DNA of 64,000 nt from an uncultured virus (IMG/VR IMGVR_UViG_3300028590_000007) (IMGVR_UViG_3300028590_000007), one strand, 5' to 3'; positions 21,619-58,211 are shown, counted from the stretch's first letter. Notes: generated from the sequence alone by a model not told the origin. A program made the numbers and translations.

Positions 21619-22427
21619 TTGGTTTCTTCTTTGGGGATGTATTGGGTCAGGTCAACCAGAAGTTCACGATTGAACTCTGGGTTGAGATGGTCAGGAACAT
21701 AACCGTGTGGGTTTGAGATCACACGGGTATTGTTTATTTTGTAATCATTGCTTGCATGAATATGCCCATGTATCCACAAGGGGATAGCATATTTTGCAGT
21801 AATAGCTGATAGGTCGGAGGCATACGCCGCACGAAGGGGGTCTTCCATTTCCGCAGGAGGTACTGAGAAAATGGATGGAGCATGATGCGTAACGACGATG
21901 GTTCTCTTTGGGTCGTGCTCTTCCAAGAACTGCTCCAGCAAGAACCGACTCCTTATGTGGGTGGAGCGCGTATCAGCAGCTGAAAGCTTACGGTATTTAT
22001 CTCCTCTGTTATAAGTGATCTTTACGTAGTCATTCATCTGATATGCTGCGATACCCATGTCCGCCCACCAGTCATTGTGGAGATTGAAGTCAGCCCACAG
22101 CGTGCAGCCGTAGAAATACCAACCGTCAATCTCCACAAAACTGTCTTCCAAGAAGTGTATGTTACTCTTGGGATTCTGATTCTTAAGCTCTGCAACGAGA
22201 TTAGGGAACTTCTCTCCATAGTACTCGTGGTTACCGCAGACATATATAACAGGGATACCTTCCGCAAACTCCCGCAGCCATTTGAAGCCAAGGGTGCCTT
22301 TGTCGATATCACCTGCTGCAATGAACACATCTGCGTATTCCGAATGTATGGGAGTAGTAGGTCCTTCACCGAATTCACGGTGCAGGTCGCTGAAGATCTG
22401 AAGTTTCATAAGGGGTGCTGTTTTCAC
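21582..22427 (-). CDS. calcineurin-like metallophosphoesterase
   Basis: SDLH, AGD, GNHE, THHAP and HGHIH motifs. Confidence 0.92.
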   Translation of the reverse strand: MKTAPLMKLQIFSDLHREFGEGPTTPIHSEYADVFIAAGDIDKGTLGFKWLREFAEGIPVIYVCGNHEYYGEKFPNLVAELKNQNPKSNIHFLEDSFVEIDGWYFYGCTLWADFNLHNDWWADMGIAAYQMNDYVKITYNRGDKYRKLSAADTRSTHIRSRFLLEQFLEEHDPKRTIVVTHHAPSIFSVPPAEMEDPLRAAYASDLSAITAKYAIPLWIHGHIHASNDYKINNTRVISNPHGYVPDHLNPEFNRELLVDLTQYIPKEETKCPIISTEQKPQ

Positions 22428-27335: not shown

Positions 27336-28131
27336 GCTACTTTGGACACTTTGGCTATGAGGGTAACATTATCACGGACATCTGCAGGAAGATCCGGATG
27401 ATGTACGAATAGAAACAGACCAAAGGGTTGTTCGAAATTCGTCACTTTCTCTCCTTCTGCAAAATACTCAATTGGGCCGCGCTCGGGGTTATTCGCTGGA
27501 GGGCGACTGACTCCCATAGGTACCAGAGTCCGTAGCTTGTAAGCACCGTTGAATTCTGGGGCAGGAACCAGCTGGTTGGGGTGCAGCAACAAAGACTTGA
27601 TGATCTCTGAAGATGCCTCCTTGCTGAGATGCCCCATGGGTTCCGTTACCAGAACGTTGGCGTCAGATATTTTCATGTGATGAGGTCAATAGGTGGGGTC
27701 GAGGGATAGGCTGGTTCTGGACGGGGTTCTCTTTTCGAGGAACGTGTCGAGCTGCTGGCTTTCAAGAAACAAACCGTGCAGCTCAAACAACATCGAATCG
27801 AGAGTCGTCCTGATAGGCTTGTACATCACACGGGGAGGCTTGGGTTTGCTGTTGGTTCTCTCCGTGAACATGCTCTTTGGAAGTGAATCAGGATGCGGTC
27901 TGCCGAATTGGAGTCTGAAGATAGCACGTCGTGCCAATGCCAGTTCTTCCGGGGTCATGGGAAGAGGTTTGGTGTATCCCGGTCCCAGAGCGTGACAAGC
28001 CAGCTCGGCTACTTTTCTCAGGGTACGGGATTGTGTGTGACCAAGTGGAGACAGTTTTTTATGCATGGGGTATAAAAAGAAAAACCCCGACTCTTTGCAG
28101 AGACGGGGTTGGGTTGTTTATAACTTTGCTA

Positions 28132-39583: not shown

Positions 39584-40077
39584 ATCAGTACGGTAATTAT
39601 AGTCTATGTAACTACTTACGGAAAGTAGAAATCTACCACGTAGATTTCTACTAGCAAATTATTTTTAGGCAGACCTGTCCTTAAACCCTTTGGCTATTTT
39701 TGTTTTAGCAGTCGCTTTGTCCTTGGTCTTCGTTTCGCCATCCTCTGTCCTGTTACTTTATCACCTTCACTTTCATCTAGCCTCTGCGCGAGTAGCGAGC
39801 GAGAGAGAGCGGAAGCGGCGTTAGGCCGCGATGCGCAGGGCGTTATCCGTCGCAGACTTCGTCTGGCGACACGTTGTCGACTCTAAATCGACTTTTGGGG
39901 GCCCCGAGGCGATGCCTCACCCCTCAAAAGCTCGATTTTTAAAAGGGTTATTTTTAATTGTGTCCCCTTTGTAGACAGTATAGAGAACACTTACATTGTT
40001 TGAACTTAATTACATTTTGTTTGTAACCTCTTTACTGGAGCAGAAACATTGTAAGCATTTTCTCTTGGAATACAGAT

Positions 40078-40105
40078 ATTATACCATAACTTATTTCCAT
40101 GTCAA
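40078..40105 (-). promoter_or_regulatory. consensus sigma70-type promoter
   Basis: TTGACA-16-TATAAT with TGn extension. Confidence 0.75.
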
Positions 40106-40196
40106 GGAAAAAAGTGAGTACAAGGAGATAAAAAAAAGATGTATCTCTGTAAGATACTCTGGGTGAATATCTTACAGAGATGAAAAAAGTATGAAA

Positions 40197-52016: not shown

Positions 52017-52095
52017 TGGCGCCCGCGCTCGGATTCGAACCGAGAACCTTCTAGCCTAGGAACCAGACGCCTCTAACCGTTGAGGCTACGCGAGC
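52017..52095 (-). tRNA. atypical tRNA, 8-nt anticodon loop UUCCUAGG and 5-bp D-stem (Arg-CCU-like or CCUA/CUA)
   Basis: GCTCGCG TA GCCTC AACGGTTA GAGGC G TCTGG TTCCTAGG CTAGA AGGTT CTCGG TTCGAAT CCGAG CGCGGGC G CCA. Confidence 0.85.
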
Positions 52096-52133
52096 GATGA
52101 AGGTGGGTAGATTCTCACCTACCCACCTAGAAG

Positions 52134-53126
52134 TCAAATACCAAGATCGCGGCAAATTTCATTCAGGTGTGCCGCTTCATCACCCCAAGAGGCAACAACA
52201 AGCGCACCACCCTGAACAAACTTGACGACCAAGGGATCATGGGGTACTGGAAGAATCTGTGTAGCGGATGTACCATCTTTCTTGCACCGCTCAATGAAGT
52301 CATCCTTCACGTCGAACGCGGCATTGGGAGCAAGGATGAACATCTGGTTCTGCATTGTCGTGCAGTTGGATTCCAGACGCTTGGAGTGCGATTCGAACAT
52401 AGTCTCCTCGTACTCTGCACGTCGGCGTTTGTAATCTTCGCGTTCACGTGCTGCCTCGGCACCATTGTACATGAACGAGAAATCACTGATAACGACGCTA
52501 GCGTTCTGTTTCGCTACTCCCCGTATGCGTGCCCGGTAGGTACTCATTTCCGCAGCAGCATCTGAGATACGAGGTGCGGCGCCCTTGCCCGTACTATCGC
52601 AATCCATCAGACACAGGATCTCCGCCTTGTTCACATTGTGCACAGGCTGAAGCTCGAATGCCTCCATATAGCCCAACTGACTTGGCGGGACGGCGCCCCG
52701 GTAATGGTTGAGCGTATCTGTGTGAAGGTTCAAGGCTTTGCGAACAGCGTGGAATCCAGCCCAAGGGAGGAACCGGCTATTCGGGTAGTCCTTTTCATAC
52801 TTCTCACGGAGATGAGGATACTCAAGGAAGGACGAACGGTAGGCAGCGAGACGGTTGTCCGAGGTCTTGGTGAACCCAAGTTTCTCAGCACGTTTCGCAT
52901 TCTCCTGATCGACGAGAAAGGAAGGCGAAGTGGCTTCCTTGACATTGCGCTCAACGAAAGCGGCAATGGTTTCAGTGCTCTTGCGATCAAGAACAGCAGT
53001 ATTGGATGGTTCCATTTGTGGATGAAGTGGTTCGATGTGTTCGAAAGTGTCAAACAAAAGGTCGTAGGGATCTGCACTCAGATCTGCCCATGCCTCCATG
53101 ATGGCGTCAAGAGAATCAGAGTCCAA
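52134..53126 (-). CDS. hypothetical protein, paralog of 53116-54003
   Basis: Shared LRE.Y...YP.SRF.P, Y.G.VP.SQ and DPLV..FV.GGAL.VASWGDEA. Confidence 0.8.
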   Translation of the reverse strand: MDSDSLDAIMEAWADLSADPYDLLFDTFEHIEPLHPQMEPSNTAVLDRKSTETIAAFVERNVKEATSPSFLVDQENAKRAEKLGFTKTSDNRLAAYRSSFLEYPHLREKYEKDYPNSRFLPWAGFHAVRKALNLHTDTLNHYRGAVPPSQLGYMEAFELQPVHNVNKAEILCLMDCDSTGKGAAPRISDAAAEMSTYRARIRGVAKQNASVVISDFSFMYNGAEAAREREDYKRRRAEYEETMFESHSKRLESNCTTMQNQMFILAPNAAFDVKDDFIERCKKDGTSATQILPVPHDPLVVKFVQGGALVVASWGDEAAHLNEICRDLGI

Positions 53127-54003
53127 GTTCGTTGACTACGCCGTTAATGAATTCCGCCTCATCACCCCAAGAGGCGACGATAAGGGCACCGCCGGGAACA
53201 AAACGGAGGACGAGTGGATCCTTTGGGATCGGGAGCTTCTGGGTGGAAGCATCAACCTGTTCACGGAAACGCTTGACGAAGTCCTTGTCCTTGGTGAAGG
53301 CTGTTGGAGGAGCCACCACAAAGAACTCAGACCGGAACTGTTCGAAGAACTTGTTGAATGGCTTCAGATGGACTTTCATCCAACCCTCCTTGTTGACGGA
53401 GTTCGTAAGTTTGCGGCAATCCAGCTCGCCGTTGAAGCAATCACGATTCTCGCTCATGATCCGGTTGAACGCCGTAACCGAAATACGACCGAAGTTGACA
53501 TCGACGGTATTCTTGATGTCCTCGATCATCTTCTTGTGTGCCTTTTCGCACGCTTCTTGGTCCATCTCGAACTGTATGGGTGCGAGACCTGCCAGATGGT
53601 AGAGACCCTTCGTGTCAGGGAAGTCGCGCTCCTTGAGTTCGAAGTCGGTGATCAGTTTTGCCTGACTATCAGGAACACCACCTGCGTAGTATTCCGCCAA
53701 GTCGATGCTGAGCTTCATCGTGCTGATGGTAGCCAAAAGACCAGCCATAGGGATGAAACGGGAAGTAGGATACTTCGCGAGGTAGTGCTCGCGAAGTTCC
53801 GGATTGGCGACAAACTTACGATGGAAATCGTTGAGTTTGATGGAAGCCGAGGATTTGAATCCGACGGCTGCGAGACGGTTGCACATCAGGGTTTCTTGGT
53901 GGAACCCCTCCGAGCGACCGTACACTTCGTAGTGGTTGATGAAACTGTCGATACGATCTGCTGAAGTGCCGACGGTTTTTGGATCAAGTGTTGGAGTTTG
54001 CAT
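53116..54003 (-). CDS. hypothetical protein, paralog of 52134-53126
   Basis: Same shared motifs. Confidence 0.8.
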   Translation of the reverse strand: MQTPTLDPKTVGTSADRIDSFINHYEVYGRSEGFHQETLMCNRLAAVGFKSSASIKLNDFHRKFVANPELREHYLAKYPTSRFIPMAGLLATISTMKLSIDLAEYYAGGVPDSQAKLITDFELKERDFPDTKGLYHLAGLAPIQFEMDQEACEKAHKKMIEDIKNTVDVNFGRISVTAFNRIMSENRDCFNGELDCRKLTNSVNKEGWMKVHLKPFNKFFEQFRSEFFVVAPPTAFTKDKDFVKRFREQVDASTQKLPIPKDPLVLRFVPGGALIVASWGDEAEFINGVVNELGL

Positions 54004-54553
54004 CTGGTAGTGTGGATCTAATTAAATCCCGCACTTCCATCAGAATAAACCCGAGGTCATTTTCCCCGGGCCATTTCTCTGGTGAACGTGCATCGGGATG
54101 ATCTGCAAGAAGACCCGTCCCATACCGTGTGTCGGTAGGATGAGCCTCGACGATAATGCTATCTCCCGTGTCCAGTAGATAGGACTGCAGGAGAGGATGC
54201 TGGGTGAACTTTTGCAAGTTCGCATGTGCGATGAATCCCCTATAAACGATATCCCATGCATTCTGTTCAAAGCCTTTGACCTCACGACCAATGGCTTTGA
54301 TTTTCTGGGAATCGGGTTCCGCGAGAATACGATCCGCAGCTTCGTTGTCTCCGAAAAACCTCGCTTTCATCCACAGCATCAAATGCTTGGCTGATGCGAA
54401 GGTGATACCGGCATGTGTAACATCGCATTGGAATCCCTGTGCGAGACAGGCATTGTCCAATTCGACGGGACTGGCAAGCTTGCTGCCGTAAAAGAAGGTG
54501 AAACTTGGTGTCTCACCTTCTTGCATTCTTCTAATCAATTTAGCCTTGTTCAT
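53984..54553 (-). CDS. NADAR (YbiA-like) protein
   Basis: KARFFGD, KAIGREVKGF, KFTQHP.L..YLLDTG, IVEAHPTDTRYG and WPGENDLGFILMEVR. Confidence 0.9.
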   Translation of the reverse strand: MNKAKLIRRMQEGETPSFTFFYGSKLASPVELDNACLAQGFQCDVTHAGITFASAKHLMLWMKARFFGDNEAADRILAEPDSQKIKAIGREVKGFEQNAWDIVYRGFIAHANLQKFTQHPLLQSYLLDTGDSIIVEAHPTDTRYGTGLLADHPDARSPEKWPGENDLGFILMEVRDLIRSTLPDANSNT

Positions 54554-54593
54554 GGTGGTTTCTGTTGGTAACGTTGGTTACGTTGGTTGGAAA

Positions 54594-54869
54594 TTAATCG
54601 TCGTCCATATGTTTGGTGGACTCTATATGCCTGATCTCCTGCATTGTTTTTGCGTGGAGACTGTTGGGGTTACCTGCTTGCCTTGGATTACGACACATGG
54701 AGCAGGAGCAGGGTTTCCTGTTCTTGTGAAGGATAACAGCTCTCCGATGGATCTGTTCTGGAGTAAGCGATTTGAAGTAACGGTTGTTGATCTTCTCAAA
54801 CTCCTCCATCCGGGCTACCATCCGTTTTCGCTGATGGCGACGAAACGCTCTTCCGTATTCCGAGGACAT
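54594..54869 (-). CDS. small basic zinc-binding protein
   Basis: RRH..R and CSCSMCRNPR motif. Confidence 0.7.
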   Translation of the reverse strand: MSSEYGRAFRRHQRKRMVARMEEFEKINNRYFKSLTPEQIHRRAVILHKNRKPCSCSMCRNPRQAGNPNSLHAKTMQEIRHIESTKHMDDD

Positions 54870-54871
54870 AT

Positions 54872-55258
54872 TTAGTCGAAGCTACCACCGCCTCCACCAC
54901 CAGAGTCACCCCCGCTGAAACTAGACCCGCCGCTATCGTAACTAGAACCGCCACTGCTATAGCCGCCGCTATCGTAACTAGAACCGCCGCTGTAATCGCT
55001 AGGCACAAAAGAAGTGCCAGAGCTATCACTATCATGCAGGGAAGAGCCAGAATGATGACCAGAATCTGAAGGGGCTTCGGGAGATCCTTCAGTTTTGTCT
55101 GATTCTTTGTGGTGGTGTCCTGACTCTGTGTGGATGAAGACAGGTACGTAGGGAGGGTGATACGATTCGGGTGACGGGGAACTGAATCCATGGTTACGAC
55201 GGGGTGGTTGGTTCTGTTTCTTTTTGGAACCGAACAAGCGGTTGAAGGGCCAGATCAT
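54872..55258 (-). CDS. protein with Gly/Ser-rich repetitive C-terminus
   Basis: SGGSSYDSGG repeated; ends FSGGDSGGGGGGSFD. Confidence 0.65.
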   Translation of the reverse strand: MIWPFNRLFGSKKKQNQPPRRNHGFSSPSPESYHPPYVPVFIHTESGHHHKESDKTEGSPEAPSDSGHHSGSSLHDSDSSGTSFVPSDYSGGSSYDSGGYSSGGSSYDSGGSSFSGGDSGGGGGGSFD

Positions 55259-55432
55259 GTGTTTTGTTAATGGGTATGTATTGTGAACGCCAAGTGCACT
55301 TCAGATTGAAGCACAAGTAGTAACTGCCTGTTTTCATTTTCTCCATGAAGAATGCTTTCTCTTTGCATTCCGGACAATCGATCATGAAACAGGAGGGACA
55401 GACGTGCCACTTCTGCTTGGCGCATCCGGGTT

Positions 55433-55996
55433 TTAGTCCTCGCTCTCTATCGCAGAAGATACAGGTGGTGGGTTCTCCTTCCATGCGACAATAGGGCAAT
55501 GTTTCTTGTACCAAGCCTTTATACCGGCAACGAAGAAGTTATCTTCTGGTGGGCTGGCAAAGGAGTAACCTTGCTGCAGGCGGCGTTTCCGTTTCTCTCT
55601 CCATGTGGACACTTTGGTGACAGCAAGGGAGATGGATATGATTGCCCCGCAGAACAAGGCCAGCGCGACTACAAAGGCCACCACACCTATGCCGAACTGC
55701 CACCAGTTAAGACCTTTTCCAAAAAAGAGCACGCCCATACAACTGCCGCCCATAGCTGCAACGAAGAGCAATACGAACAGGATGAAGTGGGCGGCGAGAC
55801 TGGTACCGAAGTGTGTCCAGAATCCTCTCTTATACGGGGTACCGGAGTTCAGCCAAAGACCAAGCCATAGTACCGGGAAGGTGACTACATATAGGAGGGT
55901 TTTCCAGAAGTAAGGGCAGAAGTTTGTGGGTAGGGTATTATTTGGATTGACCCGTCGGTATAACCGGGCATGCCAAGCGTTGGAAGACAGATTCAT
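55433..55996 (-). CDS. membrane protein
   Basis: NFCPYFW plus three TM segments. Confidence 0.7.
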   Translation of the reverse strand: MNLSSNAWHARLYRRVNPNNTLPTNFCPYFWKTLLYVVTFPVLWLGLWLNSGTPYKRGFWTHFGTSLAAHFILFVLLFVAAMGGSCMGVLFFGKGLNWWQFGIGVVAFVVALALFCGAIISISLAVTKVSTWREKRKRRLQQGYSFASPPEDNFFVAGIKAWYKKHCPIVAWKENPPPVSSAIESED

Positions 55997-56379
55997 TTTT
56001 CGGATAGAGTGAGGATGAGTGCTATGGTGATTTGACGTGGAGATGCAGAAAACGGATACAGGTCAGCTTGCATGGCTCCGGATTCTCGCTGCACCTTTTC
56101 AAGGTTTTCAGCGAATAGCTTTACCTTGTTCGGAAAGACCGATTTGTATGCCTCCATAGCGGGGTCATAGAAATCACTCGCACAAGGTGGGTGAGACGGA
56201 TATCTCTCCACCGGCAGATGCTTGAACCGATCATGCTTCCATGCCTTTTCCTTCATGTCGCCTATGGGACCGAGATCATCGCACAGAGATCGCTCCACTT
56301 GAGTCCACCCGGTTTTCAATGCGAGGATTGAATTGAGGTTGTGGTTTGGTTGCTTGTTCAGGTATTCAATGGTGTACAT
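55993..56379 (-). CDS. hypothetical protein (start at MYTIEY)
   Basis: The longer predicted start crosses a terminator; ends with ASPRQ..IAL. Confidence 0.65.
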   Translation of the reverse strand: MYTIEYLNKQPNHNLNSILALKTGWTQVERSLCDDLGPIGDMKEKAWKHDRFKHLPVERYPSHPPCASDFYDPAMEAYKSVFPNKVKLFAENLEKVQRESGAMQADLYPFSASPRQITIALILTLSEK

Positions 56380-56400
56380 AAAAAGATAAAAATGAGGTAA

Positions 56401-56428
56401 GTTCGGGGGTAGACAGCTACCCCCGAAC
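56401..56428 (-). terminator. intrinsic terminator hairpin
   Basis: gttcgggggtag/ctacccccgaac 12-bp stem. Confidence 0.75.
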
Positions 56429-56429
56429 T

Positions 56430-56845
56430 TTTTCACACACGCACAGTGGGAGTTAACCCGAAGATGCAGTTGCGCAGGTTCTAGCAGGCGACGACGTAAC
56501 ATTGACGGCCCCGACCTAAGAACTTGTCCTATCAATTTTTTCGACACAAGTTCAGCGACATCGCCCTCCCCTCACGGAACGACAATAGCGCCTACCTGCT
56601 GGCCGGATAGTTAGCGATCCATTTTAACCTGTGGATACAGGAAGGCTGTACTTGGAACCCATTTGCGCAAAGGTTCCAAGTAGTCGTCAGCGCATACGTA
56701 GTAATGCCGTCTGTTCGTACACCACTGCAGTGTCGGAACTATACACGATATTAGAGCCATTGACCCGGGTTCATCGGTATTGGGCGGAGGTGCCGAGCGG
56801 GATGCTGGGCGGAAAGGAAAGTGACGACACACCTTCCTGGCTCAT
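56430..56845 (-). ncRNA. candidate large structured ncRNA
   Basis: Between a promoter motif (56849-56858) and a terminator; multiple nested helices; no credible ORF. Confidence 0.55.
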
Positions 56846-56965
56846 TAATATATAGCACCGCAGTGCTTATATTTGCTTGGTGTGTATTAGGTAAAAAGAA
56901 GTACCCACGTCCCCTTGCGGGGACGAAGGTACTTCTCTCCATGGATGTTGACTGATACCCGGAAA

Positions 56966-57175
56966 TTAACGGCGGTCGTAGTTGCGAGGAGGCAGTTCAG
57001 CCTCGTGGCGGACGGCGTCGACGAATTCGCGTTCTTTCTTCTCGCGATATTCCTCACGGCGTTCACGTTCGCGGTCGACGACTTTCTCTTCCTCCGTACG
57101 TGGGTCGCACGAGCTGAGGGCGAGGGCAGTGGAAGCAGCTGCAACGAGCAGCATGATATGTTTGTTCAGTTTCAT
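56966..57175 (-). CDS. small lipoprotein
   Basis: Signal peptide with lipobox LSSC. Confidence 0.65.
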   Translation of the reverse strand: MKLNKHIMLLVAAASTALALSSCDPRTEEEKVVDRERERREEYREKKEREFVDAVRHEAELPPRNYDRR

Positions 57176-57443
57176 CTGGTTTGGTGGGGTTGTTGGTTAA
57201 CTATAGCACGGAAAGCTTGGGTGGAGTTTCACCACCCTCTTGGTCAGGGGAAATCACCGTCGCCTCCACAGGAGGGACATTTGAAGTTACCCTTCCATCC
57301 GGTCCCGTTACAGGACTGGCATTTGAACGCCGTATCGTGGCGGTGAGACGGATCCTGTTTTGGCTCAGGACTTACCGTTAGGGCGGCGGCTACCGACAGT
57401 GCGGCAACCGCGAACAATGCGATGTATCGTTTCATAGGAAAGA

Positions 57444-57519
57444 TGGCGCGGAGAGATGGAATCGAACCACCGACTGGCGCAGTTTTCACCACGCAGCTCT
57501 ACCACTGAGCTACCTCCGC
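57444..57519 (-). tRNA. atypical tRNA, 8-nt anticodon loop GUGAAAAC (Phe-GAA-like or GAAA)
   Basis: GCGGAGG TA GCTC AGTGGTA GAGC T GCGTG GTGAAAAC TGCGC CAGTC GGTGG TTCGATT CCATC TCTCCGC G CCA. Confidence 0.85.
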
Positions 57520-57533
57520 GTTCTCTGGGAAAA

Positions 57534-57611
57534 TGGTACGAGGAGATGGATTTGAACCACCGACCCCCAGCGCCAAAATGCTGGTGCTCTACCGGACTGA
57601 GCTATCCTCGA
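57534..57611 (-). tRNA. atypical tRNA, 8-nt anticodon loop AUUUUGGC (identity unclear)
   Basis: TCGAGGA TA GCTC AGTCCGGTA GAGC A CCAGC ATTTTGGC GCTGG GGGTC GGTGG TTCAAAT CCATC TCCTCGT A CCA. Confidence 0.85.
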
Positions 57612-57715: not shown

Positions 57716-58176
57716 TGGTGTAGGCGAGGGGAGTCGAACCCCTGTCCGCCACCAGTTCAGACAAACAGTTTACAAGCTTAGGGATTGCTCCCGGTTTCGT
57801 CCTTTCCCTTACGGGCAATCTGCGGTGCGTTACAGTTGGACACACGTATTGCTACGCTGCTGCCTCCACACCAATCCTTACCCTACCGCTCATCACTAAG
57901 AGTAGGCCCCGATTAGGTCTGGGGATCTATCCACTAATGTAGCCACGGATCGTGGACATGTCAGGCGTTACCGCACTGACTTCCGGGCCGTTGTTCCGTT
58001 TACTGCGGATTAGGCAGCGAGGGCGACGACTTCTTTCGAAGCGTTGCGACCACGGAAGGAAACGATGTTGTCGTTGCCAGTTGTTGTTTTTTGAAAGGCT
58101 TTTATGGAGGCCAACCTTATCATTCCTCCGCCTGTGTGTTTATCATCATCGATGACGTCGAAACCAGAACGCCCAC
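57716..58176 (-). ncRNA. ssrA: tmRNA, tag (A)GNDNIVSFRGRNASKEVVALAA* at 58078-58010
   Basis: 5' GTGGGCG TTCTGGTTTCGAC; 3' GGAC AGGGG TTCGACT CCCCT CGCCTAC ACCA; G3:U70; tag ends ALAA-stop. Confidence 0.95.
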
Positions 58177-58211
58177 TGGAAAATGGTGGGGGCATTGCAC
58201 CCCCGAAGTTT

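Follow-up and report, generated by a model that had tools for sequence, protein, structure and literature searches.

The DNA considered here, called the window, is a stretch of 64,000 nucleotides. It corresponds to bases 13681-77680 of the 212,352-base record of an uncultured soil jumbo phage (212 kb), which CheckV rates as complete and whose DNA is present in soil metagenome runs. Standard-code open reading frames of at least 100 aa occupy 89% of the window and nearly all of its genes lie on the minus strand. The gene content includes a split RNA polymerase beta' fragment, two NADAR proteins, a NAPRTase and tail-like proteins. The top cultured match of the beta' fragment is in Salmonella phage Arash with 32.6% identity. 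In metagenomes the fragment has 324 relatives at E <= 0.001, the top four of which are 71, 69, 65 and 65% identical while those below them are near 50-57% identity. The phage belongs to a lineage without a cultured member. Using the alignment of the beta' relatives, 21 related IMG/VR records were chosen, which are 45-54% identical in beta'. Across the whole genome a Shine-Dalgarno-like motif was found in only 11 of 115 phage genes, and the 25 nt 5' of the start codons are G-poor and often CA-rich (CACACAC).

Between 56876 and 56380 the minus strand, on which the neighbouring genes also lie, carries the signals of a self-contained transcription unit (Table 1). About 415 nt separate the promoter from the terminator hairpin, and the G+C content of the region (0.53) is near that of the flanking genes. 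An earlier note on this DNA had described a transcript ending at a 12-bp terminator. The terminator hairpin exists (pair probability 0.98) but has 14 pairs, 56430-56399, and not 12. On the upstream side, a second intrinsic terminator ends a 69-aa gene (56966-57175), and a hairpin scan also listed its inner part (56921-56904) as terminator-like. As read from its sequence, this predicted terminator shields the RNA unit from upstream transcription. The unit thus has the promoter and the intrinsic terminator of its own that are expected of an independent ncRNA gene. The start of transcription was estimated from the distance to the -10-like box and from the conserved tGAG/tGGAG of the promoter family described below, and the 5' stem-loop is the equivalent of the stem-loops that follow the other promoters of this family. 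The first AUG opens a mini-ORF that lies in a C/A-rich context resembling that of real early genes and forms the tail of a 63-aa and a 35-aa frame. The two hairpins of the three-way element include a helix named in the earlier note (56546-56553/56520-56527). Three RNA genes lie nearby, two tRNAs (57447-57519 and 57537-57611) at 600 nt and a tmRNA (57716-58176) at 870 nt from the unit, as had been claimed for the tRNAs. All 8 sequencing runs listed for the stretch consist of assembled contigs, and none of them is on record as RNA. The four that were compared gave zero cover and zero variants over 56273-56757 and are silent on expression and microdiversity. The window differs from the genome record at 8 positions (2, 4, 18, 20, 25321, 52580, 52840 and 52855), none of them near the RNA unit.

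Table 1. Features of the candidate transcription unit, its flanks and its promoter family (window coordinates)
Feature	Position	Strand	Description
In-window promoters of the family	1057, 2711, 3773, 7760, 16000, 17844, 28633, 56857, 60969	minus	box match
Upstream intrinsic terminator	56893-56936	minus	outer 9-bp stem, inner 7-bp stem with GCAA loop, then TTTTT
Early-family promoter	56849-56876	minus	GCAA at 56876-56873, 15 nt, TGCTATATA at 56857-56849
TTAATGAG box and estimated transcription start	56836-56848	minus	start estimated at ~56843-56836
5' stem-loop	56815-56838	minus	AGGAAGGUG / CACUUUCCU, 9 bp, mean pair probability 0.94
Seven-codon mini-ORF	56751-56774	minus	MNPGQWL and stop; first AUG, ~70 nt from the estimated start
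Perfect 11-bp hairpin (12 bp counting a G-U pair)	56649-56682	minus	pair probability 0.98, z -4.73
Three-way element, 96 nt	56511-56606	minus	closing helix CCGGCC/GGUCGG and two hairpins; z -4.19, MFE frequency 0.33
GU-rich run	56434-56444	minus	GUGCGUGUGUG, just 5' of the terminator; complementary to CA-rich phage gene leaders
Terminator	56380-56430	minus	14-bp hairpin 56430-56399, then ACCTCATTTTTATCTTTTT into the ATG of the next gene
Predicted non-coding transcript	56392-56843	minus	~445-455 nt including the terminator hairpin
128-aa gene, without known family	55993-56379	minus	first gene of the downstream operon 56379-52134

The promoter is one of a family, and the earlier note's claim of a promoter motif at this place held. 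In the genome the box TGCTATATA has 9 copies, all of them on the minus strand. With the relaxed box YGYTATATA, 15 minus-strand sites have T-G(A/G)G 4-5 bases downstream and a stem-loop that starts there. The consensus of these 15 members is GCAA-N15-TGCTATATA-N4-TGAG followed by the 5' stem-loop, and in many of the sites GCAA stands exactly 15 nt upstream of the box, a spacing that was judged by eye. A further box match at 22251 was left out of the family as intragenic and without the other shared features. Behind fourteen of the 15 promoters lies an ORF of 48-313 aa that starts with ATG and has a codon score of +0.08 to +0.43, and the leaders of these coding members are 22-221 nt long. The site at 56857 is the sole member without a positive-scoring ORF behind it. 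The site at 1057 has exactly the same box and the same eight bases after it. In a related phage, G007, the box recurs behind another upstream element (GTGAAA), and two of the promoter copies there lie ~30 nt 5' of tRNA genes. Because these two copies sit just before tRNA genes, the promoter type appears to drive RNA genes in the lineage. The box holds the core TAnn(T/C)TTG, which we take to resemble the Bacteroidota -7 element. Along with the scarcity of Shine-Dalgarno motifs, this core hints that the host may be Bacteroidota-like. Taken with the hairpin terminators, the 15-member family provides a first transcription map for this lineage.

The longest frames in the unit are one of 73 aa on the minus strand (56611-56832, GTG start) and one of 74 aa on the plus strand. 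Codon usage was scored as log-odds after training on 111 ORFs of at least 250 aa, stops excluded. The score is -0.19 for the 73-aa ORF, -0.195 for the 49 aa of it that start at an ATG and -0.14 for the plus-strand ORF. All three fall in the middle of the range of 294 spurious ORFs that lie inside long genes (mean -0.23, sd 0.16) and below 98-99% of true 50-codon coding chunks. Unlike the three neighbouring genes, the unit does not keep a coding score in any frame along its length. Alternative decoding (TAG=Q; TGA=W; the quadruplets TAGG/TTTC/CAAA) opened no ORF in the unit; quadruplet reading was included in view of the 8-nt anticodon loops of three tRNAs in the window. The ORFs of the unit found no family in PHROG. 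Six-frame tblastn searches gave a best E of 0.05 against the relatives and self-matches only against the phage's own genome. HMMER found four matches to the 73-aa ORF among 1.84 billion representatives, with E values of 4e-5 to 1e-4. They were rejected as homologues; they are weak and cover different parts of the query, and the two that were examined are inflated by tandem repeats in the targets. The unit thus lacks coding capacity, as would an independent ncRNA gene, and the earlier note was right that it contains no credible ORF. Coding conservation of the 73-aa ORF, which that note had named as evidence that would speak against a non-coding RNA, was not found, and the non-coding reading therefore stays alive.

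The note had also described extensive nested pairing. All five helices that it named are complementary, with 8 of 8, 7 of 7, 11 of 11, 8 of 8 (two of them G-U) and 8 of 8 pairs, but most of this pairing is what chance gives in shuffled sequences and in windows of the genome. The region 56400-56860 folds with z = -4.53, a value carried by the terminator that it includes. With the terminator excluded (56431-56845), z is -1.69 and 6 of 100 shuffles fold equally well. When 511 same-strand genome windows of 415 nt are ranked with a correction for GC, the unit is 95th, 0.9 sd better than the mean, and the window that holds the tmRNA is among the top 15 in the same ranking. Five perfect helices of at least 7 bp were seen against 3.4 expected (matched by 57 of 200 dinucleotide shuffles), three of at least 8 bp against 0.8 (10 of 200) and one of at least 11 bp against 0.01 (1 of 200). 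The hairpin at 56649-56682 is the only internal helix that is clearly beyond chance. Perfect hairpins of at least 10 bp number 33 in the 212-kb genome, many of them with a T-rich tail on the minus strand, and two of the 33 are in the unit, namely the terminator and the 11-bp hairpin.

Parts of the predicted fold do better than the whole. A 187-nt core (56689-56503) has z = -3.42 and the 5' domain has z = -2.36. The flanks of 64 nt and 75 nt, which are partners in a rod in the global fold, have z = +0.72 and +1.28 when folded alone, worse than shuffles. Since these sub-domains were picked post hoc from the fold itself, the same picking was carried out on 29 random windows of the genome as a control. 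Their best z had a mean of -2.4 and an sd of 1.4, and 3 of the 29 reached the -4.05 of the target. Two elements of the earlier structure did not hold up. The helix proposed to close its first domain uses the same bases as the 5' stem-loop of the promoter family (pair probability 0.94), so the two compete. The T-loop signature is the TTCRA motif, and the supposed T-loop, GGG-TTAACT-CCC, has a loop of 6 nt without it and lies within the 75-nt stretch that folds with z = +1.28. The modelled RNA would then consist of a few stable local elements without a globally ornate fold.

A cmscan of the whole window against Rfam at gathering thresholds, the check that the earlier note had suggested, gave no match to any family in the unit. 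At E <= 10, ten weak matches were found in 56000-57300 (best E 0.38), all far under the gathering scores. They belong to miRNA, CRISPR-repeat, sRNA, lncRNA and snoRNA models and are mostly microRNA precursors. The models for RNase P, SRP and 6S, which the note had been unable to match, were unmatched in the unit, as were those for riboswitches and group I/II introns, and the tmRNA model matches just 57716-58176, outside the unit. The GOLLD and ROOL models gave no match in 56000-57300 even at E <= 10.

The RNA is single-copy in its genome, and sequence searches found it in no other phage among those compared. A blastn search in distant mode with 56380-56960 against 50,697 phage records was empty, and so was a search of IMG/VR with an exact 24-mer. 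In the 21 related records BLAST gave a best E of 0.23 and matches of 15-19 nt only. An nhmmer search over 389,665 bases of the relatives' loci found no homologue. With the --max option, a search that took in the complete G007 and G003 and the regions flanking the tmRNA in G002 and G008 gave a best E of 50. A covariance model of the 187-nt core matched none of the 21 relatives at E <= 10; as a positive control it recovered the phage's own genome with E 1.2e-62. The one metagenome copy comes from the same phage; there are 3 differences over 20,164 bases, and the RNA region is identical. A scan of genome contigs found a single locus, 46% identical, on a 9.9-kb contig. In G002 and G008 full-length tmRNAs are followed directly by protein genes without a comparable gap. 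The neighbouring 295-aa and 229-aa genes are orphans as well and match only themselves among 5.8 billion clusters, and a search of IMG/VR with the neighbour proteins found no homologue, the 187-aa protein giving a match of only 34 residues. At about 224-243 kb in its genome, phage RaK2 has clustered ORF-free gaps of 0.4-2 kb that have repeated sequence blocks in common, on both strands. The covariance model of the core did not match RaK2, and an nhmmer profile of the repeated gaps of RaK2 did not match the unit, a comparison at the sequence level only.

Judged from its sequence signals, the stretch is quite probably a real non-coding transcription unit that makes an RNA of ~450 nt. Of the earlier note's claims, that of non-coding promoter-to-terminator signals has stood, and that of an ornate fold is not supported. 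The unit is an orphan. The best explanation overall, which we hold tentatively, is a self-contained early unit whose predicted non-coding RNA of ~450 nt is of the leader or attenuator type. As a lineage-specific early leader or attenuator-type RNA it is a possibility to be given somewhat less than an even chance. Polymerase would start near 56843-56836 from the early-family promoter and most or many of the transcripts would end at the hairpin at 56430-56399, which would give the RNA of ~450 nt. In read-through transcripts these 450 nt would form the leader of the downstream operon. The ratio of terminated to read-through transcripts would set the level or the timing of the downstream genes, and the terminated RNA may also act in trans.

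Such a use of the 450 nt by read-through transcripts is suggested because the U-tract behind the terminator hairpin is interrupted (UUACCUCAUUUUU), the ATG of the 128-aa gene (56379) lies only 20 nt behind the hairpin, and the downstream operon, which is tightly packed and 4.3 kb long, lacks a promoter of the family. Within 51800-57300 the site at 56857 is the only family promoter on the minus strand. The arrangement expected of a leader is therefore found here, with promoter, leader and terminator directly 5' of a gene that lacks its own family promoter. A hairpin, a T-rich tract and an ATG also follow one another at 28067-28131, 49377-49529 and 51862-52133, where a promoter is not recognisable. 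This recurrent arrangement suggests leaky terminators inside operons, or an unrecognised class of promoters for a phage RNA polymerase.

Several observations stand against a leader. The phage encodes an RNA polymerase subunit of its own, and if promoters for that enzyme drive the downstream operon, read-through would not be needed. The leader would be 450 nt long, far above the range of 22-221 nt seen in the rest of the family, and the unit is an orphan that neither BLAST nor the covariance model found in the 21 related phages. An antiterminator structure was sought by eye and nothing convincing was found. By eye, AAGUUC...GGGG shows a weak similarity to the terminator's 5' arm, and the ensemble holds no alternative to the terminator (P 0.98). 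The mini-ORF has no evident regulatory codons and lies ~340 nt 5' of the hairpin, unlike the situation in classical attenuators. In lambda (pL/pR, tL1/tR1, N/nut) and in T4, with its immediate-early and delayed-early genes, an early promoter and a leaky terminator precede the delayed-early genes. Like these systems, the unit combines a strong early promoter with a terminator that precedes the following genes, and those genes lack a promoter of that class. It differs from lambda in that N and cro precede the terminator there, whereas a non-coding stretch does so here. Neither an element resembling nut or put nor an antiterminator protein was recognised.

After the leader or attenuator, the reading that survives best is that of a decayed early gene, which we regard as rather unlikely. 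Under it the promoter, 5' stem-loop, C/A-rich leader, start codon and terminator of a former small protein gene would survive, and the frame would have been destroyed to leave a functionless transcript. The first 70 nt do resemble the leaders of the coding family members, the first AUG is in the usual C/A-rich context with its frame closed after 7 codons, and the orphan unit lies amid orphan genes such as those of 295 aa and 229 aa. Ordinary folding and a G+C content of 0.53, near that of the flanking genes, also fit a former gene. Against this, no frame retains a codon signal, translated searches found no similarity to the relatives or to the phage's own genes, and the HMMER matches of the 73-aa ORF are repeat artefacts. 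The promoter and terminator are close to the family consensus, and a perfect 11-bp hairpin is unexpected in decaying coding sequence.

It is a little less likely again, and on the whole unlikely, that the unit encodes a stand-alone, trans-acting and elaborately folded large ncRNA of a new class, made early beside the tRNA and tmRNA genes, in line with the earlier note's proposal of an undescribed large phage ncRNA conceptually like GOLLD and ROOL. The promoter and terminator of its own, the missing ORF, the nearby RNA genes and the same promoter type before RNA genes in G007 speak for such an RNA, and the z values of the 187-nt core (-3.42) and of the 96-nt element (-4.19) and the non-random 11-bp hairpin are also in its favour. 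The fold of the whole RNA is nevertheless ordinary (z = -1.69; 95/511), domains chosen post hoc were equalled by 3 of 29 random windows, and the 64-nt and 75-nt flanks of the rod fold worse than shuffles when alone. Known ornate RNAs are defined by conservation, and this single-copy RNA is unmatched in Rfam at E <= 10 and has no homologue in the 21 relatives by BLAST and covariance model, nor by nhmmer in two whole relatives and other loci. A likeness to GOLLD and ROOL is not supported by the fold, whose energy is within the background of the genome, by the models or by the homology searches.

What the unit shares with GOLLD and ROOL is mainly its setting. These are described as large ornate RNAs of phages and prophages whose nanocages were seen by cryo-EM, often close to tRNA islands, with GOLLD having "many members exceeding 800 nucleotides" (bioRxiv 10.1101/2024.12.08.627333). 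The unit is in a phage and near tRNAs, as GOLLD and ROOL often are, and it is likewise non-coding, several hundred nt long and without a known function. The differences are its predicted size of ~450 nt, about half that quoted there for GOLLD, the lack of any match to the models, the lack of conservation in the relatives searched, which leaves no fold backed by covariation, and its ordinary thermodynamics. Phage RNAs near tRNA genes also include T4 species 1 and 2 (RNAs C and D), which are ~120-140 nt long and processed from a tRNA precursor. These and the four ncRNAs reported in the jumbo phage PA5oct (PMC7318152) are, like the RNA of the unit, phage-encoded, of unknown role and next to or near tRNA genes. 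The unit differs from the T4 RNAs in its threefold greater length and in the promoter and terminator that it carries.

It is quite improbable that the RNA is a lineage-restricted regulator that represses translation globally. Its structured parts, the 11-bp hairpin and the 96-nt three-way element, would bind a host or phage factor, and its exposed GU-rich 3' tail would pair with the CA-rich leaders, lacking Shine-Dalgarno sites, of early phage genes, shutting these genes off as infection proceeds. In target prediction no part of the RNA other than the GUGCGUGUGUG tail pairs equally well with start regions and gene interiors, the difference between the two being 0.0-0.05 kcal/mol for the tail and +0.3 to +3.4 elsewhere. 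The effect is small and expected from composition, and a role of the tail as a seed is speculative. Least probable is a small-protein gene for one or more very small peptides. The candidates are the 7-codon ORF at 56774-56751, which has the first AUG in an unstructured C/A-rich leader and could be usable in a phage that does without Shine-Dalgarno motifs (11/115), and the 49 aa that start at an ATG within the 73-aa ORF. Against this, the 49-aa and 73-aa ORFs score like spurious ORFs (-0.195 and -0.19) and have no family or homologue, and a 7-aa peptide would leave 340 nt unexplained.

If the unit is transcribed as predicted, it adds one more family-less ncRNA to those of phages, from a jumbo-phage lineage without a cultured member. 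On present evidence the unit does not open a new class of RNA. Its practical value is modest, and it could serve as a compact test case for the way in which early units supply operons that lack promoters. Its status could change quickly once closer relatives (65-71% identical in beta') are read, and such fragments exist on metagenome contigs of up to 197 kb.

Other features of the window were observed alongside the unit. Three minus-strand tRNAs, at 57447-57519, 57537-57611 and 52020-52095, have 8-nt anticodon loops (GUGAAAAC, AUUUUGGC and UUCCUAGG). ARAGORN gives them the four-base anticodons GAAA, UUUG and CCUA, and their Rfam tRNA scores are 47, 53 and 45 bits. Their sequences suggest natural tRNAs that shift the frame by +1 or read quadruplets, UAGG being the apparent target in one case. 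Among the papers that a literature search listed on such tRNAs, the cases are engineered or classical bacterial ones. A 613-nt gap without ORFs at 39584-40196, upstream of a 602-aa gene, contains two perfect hairpins of 13 bp (39624-39652) and 14 bp (40143-40181). A second non-coding unit, or else a regulatory region, may lie in this gap.

The minus-strand tmRNA of the phage at 57716-58176 is full-length (Rfam RF00023, 103 bits) and was not called by ARAGORN. The full-length tmRNAs of the relatives G002 and G008 lie at other positions in their genomes. A 236-nt wastewater contig, from a run that is labelled RNA-Seq and is possibly DNA, matches 57969-58203 with one difference, and its match extends from the 5' part of the tmRNA gene 27 nt into the upstream sequence. 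Because this contig matches the tmRNA region, the phage or a close relative may also occur outside soil.
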